DNA of 64,000 nucleotides from the IMG/VR virus record IMGVR_UViG_3300046733_000629; one strand, given 5' to 3'. Source of the DNA: a virus. Lineage: Duplodnaviria > Caudoviricetes. Positions 8,568-14,070 of this stretch are shown here, piece after piece (positions within the stretch are counted from its first letter, which is position 1; the number at the start of each line of letters is the position of its first letter). Made by a program: the position numbers and the translations under genes. The notes beneath the pieces were generated by a model, which ran no database searches, was not told the origin of the DNA, and saw only the letters and a program-made list of their open reading frames with translations.

Positions 8568-9398
8568 ATGACGAACCCACTAATTCAAGCATATAGAAAA
8601 CCAGCTTTGTACATTGCATTGCCAAGTAAGGGTAATTTTTATAAAAATAAACCTAAACTCAGCATTGATAACGAACTAGCGGTATATGCTATGACAGCAA
8701 GGGATGAACTTATAACTAAAACACCAGACGCTTTGTTTAACGGAGAAGCCACTGTAAGTTTAATTAGAAGTTGTTGCCCAGACATTGATGATCCAGATTC
8801 AATGCCTGTGAGCGATTTACTTGTAATACTAATTGGAATTAGACAAGCAAGTTACGGTAAGGAAATTGACGTAGACGTTAAGTGTCCAAAATGTGAATTT
8901 GATAATCAACTACAACTTGATGCAAGTATAATGTTGTCAAAAACAAAATCAGAAATAGTCGCACGTGAAGTAACGTTAGACTCTGGTTTTAAAATAACTG
9001 CCAACCCATACACATTAAGAGATAGAACAACACTACAAGTTCAACAAATAAAACAAAACAAAATGATTCAAGGTTTAAGTGATGCAAAATTAGATGACGT
9101 TGCTAGACAAGAATTGTTTGGAAAAACATTTGTTGAGATTGCTGAACTTACTGTTAGTTTAATTACTAATAGTATTGAAAGTGTACAAGGTCCTGAAACT
9201 GATATTATTTCAGACAAGGAAGTGATTAAAGAATGGTTACAAAATATAACAAGAGCAGACTACGATGTAATTAAAAACAAAATAGAAGCACTAAGTGAAA
9301 GTGGTTTAGAAACTGAATTTAATGCTAGCTGCCAAGAATGTAATCACAATTGGAAAACTGGTGTTGATTTAGATATTGCAAATTTTTTCGGGGGTTGA
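8568..9398 (+). CDS. Baseplate hub assembly protein (T4 gp26-like)
   Basis: Start MTNPL at 8568 after GGAGA; YIALPSKG..Y, ELAVYAMTARDELITKTPDALFNG, LLVILIGIRQASYG and CPKC/CQEC Zn pairs. Confidence 0.78.
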   Translation: MTNPLIQAYRKPALYIALPSKGNFYKNKPKLSIDNELAVYAMTARDELITKTPDALFNGEATVSLIRSCCPDIDDPDSMPVSDLLVILIGIRQASYGKEIDVDVKCPKCEFDNQLQLDASIMLSKTKSEIVAREVTLDSGFKITANPYTLRDRTTLQVQQIKQNKMIQGLSDAKLDDVARQELFGKTFVEIAELTVSLITNSIESVQGPETDIISDKEVIKEWLQNITRADYDVIKNKIEALSESGLETEFNASCQECNHNWKTGVDLDIANFFGG

Positions 9399-9622
9399 TA
9401 GCTTCTCGTCAACCCGTAGAAATCCAAGAACTAGTTCAACGATACGAAAAACAGTTAGAGAAATCTGAAAGCAGTTTCTTAGACATAGTAATACGCAGTG
9501 AAGGTGCAGTAAGTTATCAAGATATTATGATGATGCCTGTTCCGGCTATAAAATTATTAGTTGAAAGAATGAATCACAGAGTTGAAGAAATCAACAAATC
9601 TAATCGCGGTCCTCGCCGGTAA
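9395..9622 (+). CDS. Small baseplate/tail assembly protein (gp51-like by position)
   Basis: 75 aa, coupled to the gp26-like gene; G.VSYQDIMMMP..IKLLVE resembles tail-chaperone C-terminal segments. Confidence 0.45.
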   Translation: MIASRQPVEIQELVQRYEKQLEKSESSFLDIVIRSEGAVSYQDIMMMPVPAIKLLVERMNHRVEEINKSNRGPRR

Positions 9623-10049
9623 TTAATTTATAATAAGTATCAGGCCAGTTGTCGTAATACTTTGTAGTTTTTAAGTACTTACGTTTTTCCATTATATCTC
9701 CACGCAATTGAATAAACACACAATCTGTAAAGTTCTTTACAAAGTGTCCACTATTTCTACTACTCGTAAAAAATAATAAATCAGGATTGGCAACCATTGC
9801 CTCCTCGCAAAATTTTTCTACGGGTTCCATATCATTTATATCACCTAACCAGGCAATACCAATCTCATATGTAGATTTGTCAAAAGTGTTTAGTTGTGAT
9901 AAACTATCACGTGCATCTATAAATTGTATTTTTTGCTGTAGTCTAGCCTTACGTGCAAACGGACATACTGGTAAGCCAGAGTCCTGTTTAACCTCAATAG
10001 AGTTTTGGCTCCATTTAAGGAATTCTTGTTCAAAGTCAGAAAAGTTCAT
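9600..10049 (-). CDS. Hypothetical protein, DUF1415-like
   Basis: W....IE.....LPVCPFARKA motif recalls the DUF1415 N-terminus. Confidence 0.5.
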   Translation of the reverse strand: MNFSDFEQEFLKWSQNSIEVKQDSGLPVCPFARKARLQQKIQFIDARDSLSQLNTFDKSTYEIGIAWLGDINDMEPVEKFCEEAMVANPDLLFFTSSRNSGHFVKNFTDCVFIQLRGDIMEKRKYLKTTKYYDNWPDTYYKLITGEDRD

Positions 10050-10074
10050 TATATTGATATCATTCTTGTTTATT

Positions 10075-10680
10075 GTTCTTGATGTCTTACGACATCATCA
10101 TTATCACAAAGCTAACGCTTTGTTCAATGCATATTGCTTACGCTTAATTAAAGTATCAAACTGTATTAGATAAAAAGCAATTTTTTAGATCTTAATTTAT
10201 ATTAATATTTATCTTGTTCCTTGGCAAGATATTTTATTCACACTTAGCCTACTACGGGCCAAGTGTAAAATGAGTTCTTGGCATAGAACAGCACCCACAT
10301 TACCATAGTAAACCTAGTTTAACACCTAGGAAGGGCGGTTACGCTGTACCCTTATTACATACTGCCTTTCTAACGCAGAAACATCCGGAGCCATGGTATC
10401 GACTTTTGGACTATCCTCAAGTTACGAGCGTTCGTAGAGCTTGATCTTTTTGATTTGTCAAATCAGTGTATTGACATTTGCAGGCACACCAGTATCTAGT
10501 CACGTGAATTCGTAACCTCAAGGTGAGTCGACCAACGCCGACCAAACGGAGCCTTGTTGCCTGTGTTAGTTTTGTATTAGCCTATATTTGCGAGATTTGG
10601 TATCTGTGTATTTTGGTTTGTATTAGTAATTATCTGATGCTTTAATTATTAGCTGATAACGCAATTAAAACCTTAATTCT
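10075..10680 (-). ncRNA. Candidate large structured non-coding RNA, family not recognised
   Basis: No credible ORF; core is GC-richer than flanks; at least 10 stems; G.U pairs and a GNRA (GUAA) loop work only on the minus strand; own sigma70 promoter at 10685-10713. Confidence 0.65.
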
Positions 10681-10684
10681 TGTT

Positions 10685-10713
10685 ATACTAACAAGAAAAA
10701 TATGCGTTGTCAA
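10685..10713 (-). promoter_or_regulatory. Sigma70-type promoter driving the candidate ncRNA
   Basis: TTGACA-17 nt-TAGTAT; the -35 box contains the TGA stop of the GIY-YIG gene; the -10 box lies within a perfect 9-bp inverted repeat (10677-10697). Confidence 0.75.
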
Positions 10714-11153
10714 CCTTTTTTCAGATGTTCTGTAAGAATTTTTGAACTGCCAACCCTTACATTAATAATGCCGTTATAGTATTCATCGGTTTCTAATACT
10801 CTACGGTCAAATTGTTCTTTAGCTTCTAAATAGCTTGCAACACCTCTACTAGGACAAAAATGTAATATTTCTCTAGTAAATTTATCTGCTCCAAGTGTTA
10901 GTACGTCAGCATTTAAATGATCTGACGAACCCCAATAAGTCTGCCAATCACTTTCTTTAGTGCCACGTCTTTTATTCTTTTTACCCTTTAACGGTGGTTT
11001 AGTTGTTTTGAACTTTGCTAGTTTCTTACCAATGTACTTACGATCATTAGTAAGGTTAGTTATTAAGTATACAAATGCTTCTACGCCGTCTGGTATCTCA
11101 GTGATTATTTTATTTTTGTATGTCCAAGGGACTGTCTTCTTTGTACCACTCAT
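10710..11153 (-). CDS. GIY-YIG family endonuclease (catalytic domain only)
   Basis: FVYLITNLTNDRKYIGKK, WQTYWGSS, YLEAKEQ (catalytic Glu) and YYNG (Asn); 147 aa with no C-terminal DNA-binding domain. Confidence 0.85.
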   Translation of the reverse strand: MSGTKKTVPWTYKNKIITEIPDGVEAFVYLITNLTNDRKYIGKKLAKFKTTKPPLKGKKNKRRGTKESDWQTYWGSSDHLNADVLTLGADKFTREILHFCPSRGVASYLEAKEQFDRRVLETDEYYNGIINVRVGSSKILTEHLKKG

Positions 11154-11277
11154 CTATTAATCTTTTAATTCTGTCTAATGCGTCCATTCCTATAGATGCT
11201 TGTTCTATTGTGAAGGGAGCATGCTTTAACACATACTCTTTATCTTCTAATACAAATTCTTCTTGATCTTTATGCAT
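11110..11277 (-). CDS. Small hypothetical protein (55 aa), not in the ORF track
   Basis: MHKDQEEFVLEDKEYVLKHAPFTIEQASIGMDALDRIKRLIDEWYKEDSPLDIQK; start overlaps the gp46 stop, end overlaps the GIY-YIG start. Confidence 0.45.
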   Translation of the reverse strand: MHKDQEEFVLEDKEYVLKHAPFTIEQASIGMDALDRIKRLIDEWYKEDSPLDIQK

Positions 11278-13045
11278 CAATTACTTCAATCTCAGTATTA
11301 AAAGTAGTGAAGCCATTTTCTTTTGTAACTTGTAGAACGCTGTTAACACGACCCACTAATTCATCTCGATGAGATATAAGTAAAATATTTTTTCCACGAT
11401 CACGTTCCATTTTCTTTAATACACTTAATGCACTTTCAACACCAATTGTATCCATACCGCTATCAACAAGTTCGTCAATGCATACTAAGTTAATAGGATG
11501 ATTCATGCTTTCAAATACATCACGGAAACTCCAACTAAGACCTAGTATTAATCTGTTACGTTCACCTCTTGACAAATTATCAAAGTCTAAGTCTTGTCCA
11601 AGTTGTGTAATAGTTACAGTTAAGTCACTTTGGAATTGTACTTCATGTGGTAAACCTAAACGTGTAATATAATATTCTAAACGTGTGTTTAAGAATTGTA
11701 AATTTTGTTCAATAATCTTTTTACGAATAAAACTATCTTTGTTTGTAAGTAGTTTCAATAAAAAGTCTTGATGTTCTTTTAATTCAGTAAGTCTATTAAC
11801 TTCTGTCCAACTTACTTCTTGTAACCCAGTATTTTTTAATGCTTCAATTTGTTCTGTATATGGGTCTAATTCCTTTTCAGTATTCTCAAGTAATATTTTA
11901 TTTTCTTTAATTTTATTTTGATGTTCGTATGCTTCGTTCAAACTATTATATTCAATACGTGGTGCAATGCCAATATCGCCAATTTCTTCAACAGCAAGTT
12001 TGTATTCTTCCATTGCTGATGTATCATCGTCAATATGTTTTTGAGAATCATTAACTAGTTCTGTTTTTTGTTCTACTATTTTATCATGTTGCTCATCATG
12101 TATTTCTTGTCCACATGCATAGCATTTATGTTCTAAAGTAGAATCTAAATCTGTTTGTGCCTTGTTTAAACGTTTTTGTTCACGTTCAATACTACTAGTA
12201 AGTCTTGCTATTTCAGCAGTTAATGTATCTCTTTGATTTTTCTTTTCATTGAATTGTGCAAACTCAGCATGTGATTTAATTTCAGCGTCAATATCAATAT
12301 GTTCTAATGCATTAACTTCACTAGCATATTCATTTATTTTTTCAATCTGTTTACTAGCCCAATGAGTTTGTCTACGTTCTAAATCTTTAATACTACTACC
12401 AATACGTTCATTGGCATCTTCAATGCCTTTTATTCGAAATGTTTCTTCAGTAATTCTATCTTTAGTATTCTTAGTTAAGTCTTTTAATATATTTGCTTTT
12501 TGACTAAGTTTTGTAATACCTAACAGTTGTTCAATCATCTCACGTTGATCATTTGCTCGCATACTTAAGAATGGTTCTGTGTATGTGTTTAATGCACAAA
12601 TATGCTTAAACATTGTATGACTCATACCAAGTACATCTTCAATAACTGCTTGGCTTTGTCTACCTTCGCCTTGCATTTCGTCGGTGATGCCTTCGTTGTT
12701 ATCAACATCGTTTACTAAGAACTTAAATATGTTAGGCTTACGTCCACGTTCAATTCTGTAACTTACACCGTCTTTTTCAAAGTCGCAAGTTACCATCATA
12801 TTCTTATTATTAGTTTTATTAACTAGATTATCTTTTTTAATATTGTAAAGTGCATTGCCATACAATGCATAACTTAATGCATTAATAATAGTAGTCTTAC
12901 CAGTACCATTACGAGAACCATCTCCTCCTAAGTCAATGTTATTACCTAATACAAGTGTTAAGCCGTGTACGTCAAAGTGTACAGCCTGTGTGACATTACC
13001 CACACTCATAAAATTCTTTACGGTGATATTTTTAATTGTTAGCAT
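11270..13045 (-). CDS. Recombination nuclease ATPase subunit (T4 gp46 / Rad50 / SbcC-like)
   Basis: Walker A RNGTGKTT, Zn-hook CYACG inside a coiled coil, signature LSRGE, Walker B IDELVD, H-loop ISHR. Confidence 0.95.
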   Translation of the reverse strand: MLTIKNITVKNFMSVGNVTQAVHFDVHGLTLVLGNNIDLGGDGSRNGTGKTTIINALSYALYGNALYNIKKDNLVNKTNNKNMMVTCDFEKDGVSYRIERGRKPNIFKFLVNDVDNNEGITDEMQGEGRQSQAVIEDVLGMSHTMFKHICALNTYTEPFLSMRANDQREMIEQLLGITKLSQKANILKDLTKNTKDRITEETFRIKGIEDANERIGSSIKDLERRQTHWASKQIEKINEYASEVNALEHIDIDAEIKSHAEFAQFNEKKNQRDTLTAEIARLTSSIEREQKRLNKAQTDLDSTLEHKCYACGQEIHDEQHDKIVEQKTELVNDSQKHIDDDTSAMEEYKLAVEEIGDIGIAPRIEYNSLNEAYEHQNKIKENKILLENTEKELDPYTEQIEALKNTGLQEVSWTEVNRLTELKEHQDFLLKLLTNKDSFIRKKIIEQNLQFLNTRLEYYITRLGLPHEVQFQSDLTVTITQLGQDLDFDNLSRGERNRLILGLSWSFRDVFESMNHPINLVCIDELVDSGMDTIGVESALSVLKKMERDRGKNILLISHRDELVGRVNSVLQVTKENGFTTFNTEIEVIDA

Positions 13046-13047
13046 GT

Positions 13048-14070
13048 TTACGATGTTAATCCTGTATAAATGTCTACTAATAGTTCTTTTTTGATAGTAT
13101 CGCTTTGTACTGAATCTAGTTGTGATAATACAATACTGTCTACATTTTCAACTTGTATATCAACTCCTTTATTCCAGTCTTGTGTATGCTCTTCTTTCTT
13201 ACTTGGCATAAGAGCAATCTCACGTAAGTCATATTGTTTAGCAAATGTTTCTTTAATAAAGTTTGCTTCTTCATATGTTATACCTACGTCAAGTGTTACA
13301 CGACAATAAGTTTTGTCTGACAAAAACTTGTCTGGGTCGTCAATAAGTTTACTTAATGTAAGTGTACGATATTTAGGTGCATCAGGCCATTTTAGATATT
13401 CGATAGTACCATCCCAATCTAAAATAGTACAACCACGTTCATCATCCCATGCATCAGCATAGTTATGTGGAAAACAATTACCTGGATAAATTACATTACC
13501 GTGTTGTTGTCTTTTATGAAAGTGTCCACTAAACACCATTTCGGGTCCTGATAAATCTTCTGCTTTTAGTCCACCATGATCTGGCATCTGTACCATTGCA
13601 TTCATATAGAAACTAGGTAGTTCAAAATGACCAAACATATATTTACATTTAATATCTCTCAACGACTTCCATTCGTCATCACATAGCCATGGAATAAATG
13701 CAACACCGTCTTCAACAAAACGCTGATCATTTATCATTCTAATCTTAGGAAAATCTTCAATCATAGACAAACTATGAATCTCACGTTTTTCTCTATAATA
13801 GAGATCGTGATTTCCTGTAATCATAATAACTTCATCGAAGTTATCATTTAGTCTACGTAAATTACTTGTTGTATAGTTTAATGTACTAACATTAATACTT
13901 GCACGATTATGATGCCAGTCACCTAAGAAGAAACATTTTTTAATACCTCTATTATGTGCCTCTGATATCATCCAATCAATAAAGTCTTCACAATCTTGAT
14001 TGTGATGCCGACTATTATTCTTCATGCCAAAGTGAATGTCAGTAAAAATTATTGCTTTGTCAAAAAACAT
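13048..14070 (-). CDS. Recombination nuclease subunit (T4 gp47 / Mre11 / SbcD-like)
   Basis: Metallophosphoesterase motifs FTDIHFG, LGDWHH, GNHD, GHFE, SGHFH. Confidence 0.95.
   Translation of the reverse strand: MFFDKAIIFTDIHFGMKNNSRHHNQDCEDFIDWMISEAHNRGIKKCFFLGDWHHNRASINVSTLNYTTSNLRRLNDNFDEVIMITGNHDLYYREKREIHSLSMIEDFPKIRMINDQRFVEDGVAFIPWLCDDEWKSLRDIKCKYMFGHFELPSFYMNAMVQMPDHGGLKAEDLSGPEMVFSGHFHKRQQHGNVIYPGNCFPHNYADAWDDERGCTILDWDGTIEYLKWPDAPKYRTLTLSKLIDDPDKFLSDKTYCRVTLDVGITYEEANFIKETFAKQYDLREIALMPSKKEEHTQDWNKGVDIQVENVDSIVLSQLDSVQSDTIKKELLVDIYTGLTS

Follow-up and report, generated by a model that had tools for sequence, protein, structure and literature searches.

The minus strand of a stretch of 64,000 nucleotides (nt; the window) from a tailed-phage record (Duplodnaviria; Caudoviricetes; IMG/VR record IMGVR_UViG_3300046733_000629) harbors, within AT-rich DNA of about 33% GC, a gp47-like gene (13048-14070), a gp46-like gene (11270-13045) and a gene for a GIY-YIG nuclease, followed by an interval of 660 nt (10050-10709) and by an open reading frame (ORF) of 149 amino acids (aa). 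There is hardly any doubt that this interval encodes a real structured RNA, which belongs to a new family. A reading of the sequence alone (the original prediction) had already placed at 10075-10680 an unrecognised, promoter-driven, structured non-coding RNA of ~600 nt in a region without any credible ORF, and had listed a ribozyme, a scaffold, a sponge and a primer as its possible functions. The only two ORFs of the interval, of 42 and 40 aa, indeed have no Pfam match. Close relatives differ within it by indels of 1 and 2 bases, so that any reading frame is broken, and no conserved frame was found, leaving aside the 45-95 aa long stretches without stop codon that some sequences contain. The GC-richer core that had been described is also there, with 0.43-0.45 GC at 10250-10620 as opposed to 0.26-0.35 around it.

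Relatives were gathered through the 149-aa protein, which gave 26 IMG/VR loci, and through a degenerate pattern of the core, which retrieved 42 viral and 36 metagenome stretches, all of them marine. Alignment A1 covers the leader and interval of these relatives, A2 contains 36 distinct sequences from marine viromes and metagenomes, and A3 is a wider set for the 5' domain that includes T4-like contigs. In most loci the identity of the interval is 75-94% over ~650 nt, and that of the 149-aa protein only 52-87%. At the DNA level, identity of the core is 82-95% in 11 of 12 loci and 69% in the most divergent one, and the same comparison gives 80-91% for gp46 and 65-87% for the 149-aa ORF; in a sliding comparison, no other DNA of the neighbourhood is as well conserved as 10200-10550. 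The RNA is present once per genome fragment, both in the window and in relatives' contigs of 222 kb and 123 kb (searched with model R1, described below). Conservation and covariation in syntenic relatives, the lack of which had been named beforehand as grounds for abandoning the RNA, are both strong.

The RNA is assigned to the minus strand, as had been proposed, because eight pairs are G.U in most sequences and because 97.5% of the alignment cells pair when read on that strand, compared with 88.5% on the plus strand. RNAalifold run on the relatives returns 73 pairs, 24 of them with compensatory changes, and a scan of all column pairs of A2 revealed a long-range helix, a 4-bp helix that crosses it and a loop-loop contact. 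The model assembled from these elements has 78 pairs, which are formed in 97.5% of cells over the 36 sequences and in only 29-41% after a shift of the 3' partners by 1-3 columns. Double changes are found in 28 pairs, against 9.5 +/- 1.7 in shuffled alignments, and none of 500 shuffles reaches the observed number.

The fold consists of three parts: a 5' junction (10572-10480), a core (10475-10301) and a 3' module (10289-10220), whose elements are collected in the table below. On A3, 93.9% of the cells of the 5' domain are paired versus 27-38% after sliding, and 14 of its 22 pairs, spread over all four helices, show double changes. In the core, the long-range helix S2 encloses hairpins P6, P7 and P8. 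The contact between the P4 and P8 loops is paired in all sequences at its four positions, one of which (A2 columns 137/287) is A-U 17 times, G-C 13 times and G-U five times. Most of the stems drawn in the original prediction are confirmed by this model: the long-range helix (S2) and the hairpins at 10313-10330, 10331-10353 and 10423-10436 are backed by covariation, and a 13-bp hairpin placed at 10237-10269 is present as P9, with two covarying pairs. The hairpin at 10362-10378 (P6) fits the structure and does not vary, hence covariation cannot speak for or against it. Two other proposals failed, as the hairpin at 10210-10231 is not conserved and the helix that closes the 5' domain is not CAGGCA/TGCCTG but AGGC paired with GCCU (P1). 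Two further pairings were considered and rejected. An outer helix between the box regions, suggested by single-sequence folding, has sides that change in parallel and not complementarily, and pairing of the P7 loop (GUAACC) with a P3a strand (GGUUAC) shows no covariation.

Table. Features of the RNA locus and its neighbours (positions in the window; a dot, no strand given).
Feature	Position	Strand	Remarks
GIY-YIG nuclease gene	10710..11153	-	upstream neighbour of the RNA; 147 aa; catalytic domain only, without DNA-binding extension
Sigma-70-type promoter TTGACA-17-TAGTAT	10685..10713	-	consensus scan; predicted start near 10678
Inverted repeat CTTGTTA-GTA-TAACAAG	10679..10695	.	spans the -10 box
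AT-rich leader block	10627..10659	-	nearly invariant; A1 columns 58-88
Small leader hairpin AGAU-ACCAA-AUCU	10593..10605	-	read by eye
5' domain	10480..10572	-	multi-helix junction; alignment A3
P1	10554-10551/10485-10482	-	5' domain
P2 hairpin	10543-10537/10532-10526	-	5' domain; covariation
P3	10525-10522/10490-10487	-	5' domain
P3a hairpin	10517-10511/10504-10498	-	5' domain
P4 hairpin	10457..10475	-	stem invariant; fits the structure, neither supported nor contradicted
Loop-loop (kissing) contact	10469-10466/10325-10322	-	ACAC (P4 loop) with GUGU (P8 loop); covariation
P5 helix	10444-10440/10421-10417	-	3 of 5 pairs with double changes; encloses P5a
P5a hairpin	10436-10433/10426-10423	-	pair 171/185 is C-G in 20 and A-U in 15 sequences
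Pseudoknotted core	10301..10411	-	S1 crosses S2; model R2, 140.6 bits
S1	10411-10408/10386-10383	-	3 of 4 pairs double-changed; 100% paired; crosses S2
S2 long-range helix	10398-10391/10308-10301	-	5 of 8 pairs double-changed; 100% paired; best supported
P6 hairpin	10378-10362	-	fits but never varies; neither supported nor contradicted
P7 hairpin	10353-10331	-	covariation; loop holds invariant GCRUAACC
P8 hairpin	10330-10313	-	covariation
P10 variable hairpin (GUUC/GAAC)	10274..10289	-	presents twin box 1
Twin box 1 UGCCAAG	10277..10283	-	in variable hairpin P10
P9 hairpin	10238..10268	-	11 pairs, between the boxes; 99.5% paired; 2 pairs double-changed
Twin box 2 UGCCAAG	10220..10226	-	57 nt after box 1
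Late-promoter-like TATAAAT	10195..10201	-	resembles a T4-type late promoter; ATAAAT conserved, A2 columns 417-425
Two small covarying hairpins	10122-10107 and 10097-10080	-	leader of the 149-aa ORF; alignment A1
149-aa ORF	9600..10049	-	downstream neighbour; no Pfam family; weak PHROG match without assigned function; syntenic with PA5oct gp337

The 3' module carries the most peculiar feature of the RNA, two identical short words that are referred to as the twin boxes. Each of the 36 relatives has the same 5-9 letters at both box sites, and the word differs between lineages: at least eight words occur among these sequences, and the copies are always identical within a sequence. In other lineages both copies read UGUCAAG, UGUGAAG, UGUAAAA, GGUGAAG or GGAAAAG, among other words, and T4-like members harbor the paired words ACAUGAAG, ACAUGAUG, AGAUAAUG or AUCGUGAU at a spacing of 54-68 nt. 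As the boxes vary freely and yet stay identical to each other, a nucleic-acid strand that pairs with them is a likelier partner than a protein that reads them. It is unlikely that the GIY-YIG nuclease recognises the boxes through protein-DNA or protein-RNA contacts, since the nuclease barely varies while the boxes do so freely. One contig (L117) has three copies of a box (ACAUGAA), ~240-400 nt after the start of the RNA, and box-flanked units may hence differ in number. Candidate partners were also examined and discarded: a site in the baseplate-hub gene tracks two box variants and not the others, and recurrent positions of a third copy or of a complement are shared only by close relatives with the same box, all of which is attributable to chance or phylogeny; the P9 stem (CUUGGC) could pair with the boxes in no more than two of the eight variants.

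Transcription of the RNA can be predicted from the sequences that flank it. The predicted TTGACA-17-TAGTAT promoter directed into the RNA was found by a consensus scan. Its -35 hexamer (10713-10708) overlaps the TGA stop codon of the nuclease ORF and its -10 element is of the extended type (TG-TAGTAT, 10690-10685). In the window and 13 leader-bearing relatives the -35 is invariant, the -10 is always TG-TAnnnT and the spacing is fixed at 17 bp. Phages of the PA5oct type rely on the host RNA polymerase and use TTGAC/TATAATA promoters (PMC7318152). The inverted repeat over the -10 box may act as an operator or, at the end of the nuclease mRNA, form a weak hairpin; its TTGTTA...TAACAA arms are kept in most relatives and are imperfect in L003 and L007. 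The leader block also reads as a second promoter-like site (TTATCA or TTGAAG, ~18 bp, GATAAT). The small leader hairpin has the form AGAC...GUCU in relatives, a compensatory change between C-G and U-A, and its motif (CAGAY-loop-RUCUG) is found in one to three tandem copies in distant T4-like contigs, among them L151, L157 and L181 with two or three copies downstream of the nuclease gene. A middle promoter with a MotA box on the opposite strand was rejected, as the box word is present with no -10 element after it. At the other end, the TATAAAT motif is probably the 3' limit of the RNA unit and the late transcription start of the 149-aa ORF, and T4-like contigs have in the equivalent place a terminator hairpin with a UUCG loop followed by ATAAATA. 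In this jumbo-phage lineage the RNA very probably constitutes a transcription unit of its own.

The RNA unit would span from ~10678 to ~10210, both ends being predicted. The ~600 nt first attributed to it have to be reduced, as the conserved core measures ~360 nt (~10220-10572) and the RNA ~450 nt when counted from the predicted start. The 3'-most ~150 nt of the originally delimited interval (10075-10200) lie behind TATAAAT and more likely constitute a late 5' leader of the 149-aa ORF, apart from the large RNA. Two small hairpins that had been placed near 10081-10096 and 10107-10122 do show compensatory changes in A1, and they probably lie outside the RNA, in this leader. Only the segment at 10075-10111, with the hairpin at 10097-10080, gives a match to a CRISPR repeat family (CRISPR-DR33, RF01343), which stays below threshold, with 22.9 bits against a gathering score of 39 and an E-value of 0.029. 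Related motifs, GAGCGUAAGC and then a hairpin, follow the late promoter in T4-like contigs.

The distribution of the RNA was explored through its nuclease neighbour, which sits directly upstream of it on the same strand, after gp46, in all relatives examined. The GIY-YIG protein has at least 599 relatives in IMG/VR and is 75-85% identical to that of the window where gp46 is only 51-58% identical; with an identity so far above that of gp46, the gene must be strongly constrained or have spread horizontally among marine myoviruses. When it follows gp46, a GC-richer and ORF-poor stretch of 350-650 nt usually comes after it. When it is located elsewhere, the next ORF abuts or overlaps its stop codon (~18 of 80 loci). 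The cultured phage Melnitz has only 148 nt after its nuclease gene, and a covariance model of the 5' domain (R1) finds nothing in the whole genome. In the window R1 scores 102 bits (E 5e-24), in a single copy. It locates the 5' domain directly after the nuclease stop in 28 of 82 sources, 11 of which had not been used to build it and match with E-values of 1e-8 to 1e-12 or, for two, of 3e-4. In T4-like contigs a few bases at most separate the nuclease stop codon from the start of the RNA, and eight of these contigs also give weak matches to the A2 sequence profile in the first 100 nt after that stop. A model of the core (R2) did not recover the core in T4-like contigs, with weak matches at the P7 hairpin motif in L134 and L175, and so the homology of the core beyond the lineage is a matter of reading sequences by eye, with no score attached; read in this way, some of these contigs have counterparts of the P5 helix, the order of the pseudoknot and the P7 hairpin. 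The R1 matches and the twin boxes of the T4-like contigs together make the RNA a member of a broad, apparently undescribed family.

Other contigs show at least three more kinds of 5' region after the same nuclease gene, one in L121, L125, L130, L135, L143, L163 and L170-L178, a second in L134, L150, L160, L162, L175 and L177, and a third in L153, L166, L174, L179 and L184. They have common downstream modules such as GGAACGAAGC and GUCGACGUAGGUUGGGAAAGGUCAGAGCCC, which suggests that these RNAs form a modular super-family whose 5' domains can be exchanged. As far as searched, the family is confined to uncultured marine myoviruses: the interval and the versions of four relatives had no blastn match among 50,697 phage records, and 185,579 bacterial and archaeal genomes contained no true match, a pattern hit in a metagenome-assembled genome of Balneolaceae being due to chance.

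The neighbours of the RNA deserve some comment. The 147-aa nuclease matches Pfam SegE_GIY-YIG (E 1.3e-33) and PHROGs phrog_447 (E 3e-36), whose name in PHROGs, 'NAD synthetase', looks like a propagated misannotation. The label DUF1415 that had been given to the 149-aa ORF has no Pfam support; this ORF is conserved much less than the RNA upstream of it. The gp46/gp47-like genes, which encode recombination nucleases of the Mre11/Rad50 type, are ~67% identical in DNA to those of the Pseudomonas jumbo phage PA5oct, in which the outer synteny is the same, with the baseplate hub, a homologue of the 149-aa ORF and then an unannotated gap of 660 nt. PA5oct has no GIY-YIG gene at the syntenic position, and no counterpart of the RNA was found in it with an nhmmer profile on the syntenic region, with R1 on the whole genome or with R2 on the syntenic locus (L001). 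In L001:3002-4480 (PA5oct 75704-77180) the gap is followed by four annotated ORFs of 38-50 aa in a GC-richer stretch; this region has no similarity to the RNA, and an unrelated, unannotated RNA may lie there. PA5oct has four published non-coding RNAs, ncRNA001-004, which resemble the present one in being previously unannotated RNAs of a related jumbo phage that depends on the host RNA polymerase and differ from it in lying at other genome positions, none of the four falling in the syntenic gap (PMC7318152).

As had been claimed, the RNA matches no known family. Rfam 15 gave no match at the gathering score over the whole window and 20 related loci, and only chance-level matches at E<=10 on 9900-10850 and the related loci, with GOLLD, ROOL, HEARO, OLE, raiA, RNase P, tmRNA, 6S, riboswitches and Polynucleobacter-1 among the families in view; ARAGORN detected neither tRNA nor tmRNA. 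A description of the RNA was not found in the literature, where a catalogue of viral RNA motifs from IMG/VR, with motifs of 29-151 nt, could hold fragments of it (PMC10690425). The family is new, and phage-borne ornate RNAs as a general class have precedents. Among these, GOLLD and ROOL are often found in prophages and are larger than this RNA, and to our knowledge no counterpart of twin identical boxes exists in GOLLD, ROOL, HEARO, OLE or raiA. The present RNA also differs from these five in its lack of any sequence or structure match to them and in its fixed site after gp46 and a nuclease gene. It shares with them a length of several hundred nt, many covarying helices, tertiary contacts and a non-coding nature, as well as carriage by phages and a role that cannot be deduced from sequence (bioRxiv 10.1101/2024.12.08.627333). 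Telomerase RNA and the non-coding RNAs of DRT2 and DRT10 similarly contain two short identical words that flank a segment, with their identity kept and not their sequence (PMC12632851), but the spacing of the boxes (55-64 nt) is not kept in frame here and the likeness is no more than a resemblance. A template for a reverse transcriptase was rejected in this connection, as the contigs of three relatives, which are incomplete genomes of 123-222 kb, contain no reverse transcriptase domain (PF00078).

Parts of the interval are found in contigs of 13 marine metatranscriptome runs, RNA and DNA sources together representing 11 studies. This shows that the phages were present in the metatranscriptome samples, and they were probably active there.

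The best explanation of all this proposes a minus-strand non-coding RNA gene with a three-part fold that acts in trans by pairing through its twin boxes, and a probability of roughly 40% is assigned to it as a whole. In the jumbo-phage lineage, the host RNA polymerase would transcribe the RNA from its own extended -10 promoter (10713-10685), giving a transcript of ~450 nt that would end before the late promoter of the next gene, while in T4-like relatives the RNA would be a 3' extension of the nuclease mRNA that ends at the terminator. The RNA would then act in trans as a stable folded molecule or as the scaffold of a ribonucleoprotein, in which the rigid 5' and core domains would hold both boxes as single-stranded sites, available for base pairing to a nucleic-acid partner that would co-vary with them. 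This last part, a trans-acting RNA or ribonucleoprotein whose boxes pair with such a partner, is put forward tentatively, at clearly less than even odds. Several observations weigh against the proposal. Folding of single sequences is only ~2 standard deviations better than that of shuffled controls on either strand, so that the folding-energy test that had been suggested is marginal (z of only about -2) and the case rests on the comparative structure, which is strong. No canonical terminator is found at the 3' end of the RNA in this lineage. Complements of the boxes in the window are not above chance, and the loci searched share no position across box variants. In contigs of four metatranscriptomes the depth over the RNA is comparable to that over its neighbours (9000-12500), and the nuclease ORF and the RNA are joined in two of the contigs; since RNA and neighbours are covered alike, these contigs prove neither a discrete transcript nor its strand. 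The T4-like RNA has no promoter of its own, which leaves room for a role in cis within the nuclease mRNA.

A trans-acting RNA is favoured, followed in order by an element acting in cis, a partner of the nuclease, a ribozyme and a DNA element. The cis role could be that of a 3' untranslated region that stabilises or terminates the gp47-gp46-nuclease transcript, or of a leader or insulator that controls read-through into the late gene. The RNA always lies where DNA-metabolism genes give way to a unit with a late-type promoter, and the UUCG-loop terminator of the promoterless T4-like versions and the joining of nuclease ORF and RNA in metatranscriptome contigs are what such an element would produce. 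On the other hand, known stabilisers and terminators need far less than a pseudoknot, a loop-loop contact and near-invariant loops within ~360 nt, this lineage has a dedicated and invariant promoter, and no riboswitch or leader family matches; a cis element is accordingly considered unlikely. Another rival is the idea that the RNA recruits, guides or regulates the GIY-YIG nuclease, as the omega RNAs do in the OMEGA systems of IscB and TnpB. These systems likewise have a small nuclease gene directly next to the gene of a large structured RNA, both on one strand and kept together from lineage to lineage. Here the nuclease gene is immediately upstream in every relative examined, with only a few bases between its stop and the RNA in T4-like contigs; the order is kept where gp46 is only ~55% identical, and the protein lacks a DNA-binding extension. 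Nevertheless, the nuclease often does without the RNA, both in the loci at 76-85% identity that leave no room for it after the stop codon and in Melnitz, and its sequence is constant while the boxes change. The OMEGA enzymes are of the RuvC/HNH type and not GIY-YIG, and they have a long variable guide. In this RNA variable stretches occur in the leader and after box 2, none of them bounded like a guide (the RNA ends being predicted); no guide-like variable segment of at least 15 nt is found, the variable words being only 7 nt long, and transposon ends are not evident. Moreover, the RNA has its own promoter in this lineage, and small GIY-YIG enzymes can act without RNA, as T4 endonuclease II does. 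Partnership with the nuclease is therefore regarded as improbable.

A ribozyme, self-cleaving or self-splicing and possibly the remnant of an intron with its homing endonuclease, would account for the large pseudoknotted fold, for the invariant unpaired nucleotides and for a nuclease that is more conserved than its neighbours, as expected of a mobile gene. Genes of GIY-YIG endonucleases are a typical cargo of group I introns in phages (PMC3073962), and the introns of the T4 td/I-TevI type likewise place a pseudoknotted RNA beside a GIY-YIG ORF in a DNA-metabolism cluster of a T4-related phage. Yet the ORF lies here outside the folded RNA, and gp46, the nuclease and the 149-aa ORF are complete and collinear with full-length homologues, so that there are no exons to join. 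Models of group I (RF00028) and group II introns and of small ribozymes give no match even at E<=10, and the helix topology is another one: the order S1 5', S2 5', S1 3', three hairpins, S2 3' leaves only 9 nt between the two 5' strands, where group I introns have the P4-P6 domain between the 5' strands of P3 and P7. Such an origin is thus thought quite improbable. A function of the DNA itself, in which the 7-bp direct repeats on either side of a palindrome would be active as an origin of replication, as a hot spot of recombination or as the target of a nuclease, receives the least credence of all. It would suit the position of direct repeats flanking a hairpin-forming segment beside SbcCD-like genes, and the three boxes of one relative suggest that units are gained or lost. 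Duplex DNA would not require covariation of long-range and loop-loop pairs, however, nor would it explain the eight conserved G.U pairs and the many G-C to G-U changes seen on one strand only, or a promoter that points into the element.

Returning to the trans-acting RNA, its two words, ever identical and changing between lineages, are a testable sign of something that reads both, most simply a pairing strand. It could even be imagined that the twin boxes constitute a programmable specificity element of 7 nt that targets the GIY-YIG nuclease or the end-processing machinery of gp46/gp47; this is very improbable, but if true, it would mean an RNA-directed nuclease system of an undescribed kind in abundant ocean phages. 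Large RNAs with such a conserved tertiary structure are rare, and their known roles are mostly those of ribozymes, cores of ribonucleoproteins and guide scaffolds. The RNA is found in dozens of contigs from marine viromes and metagenomes in this lineage alone, and its link to T4-like phages makes it much more widespread. It is probably the sign of a function that has gone unrecognised in abundant ocean viruses, and its fixed place beside recombination nucleases provides a concrete starting point for experiments.

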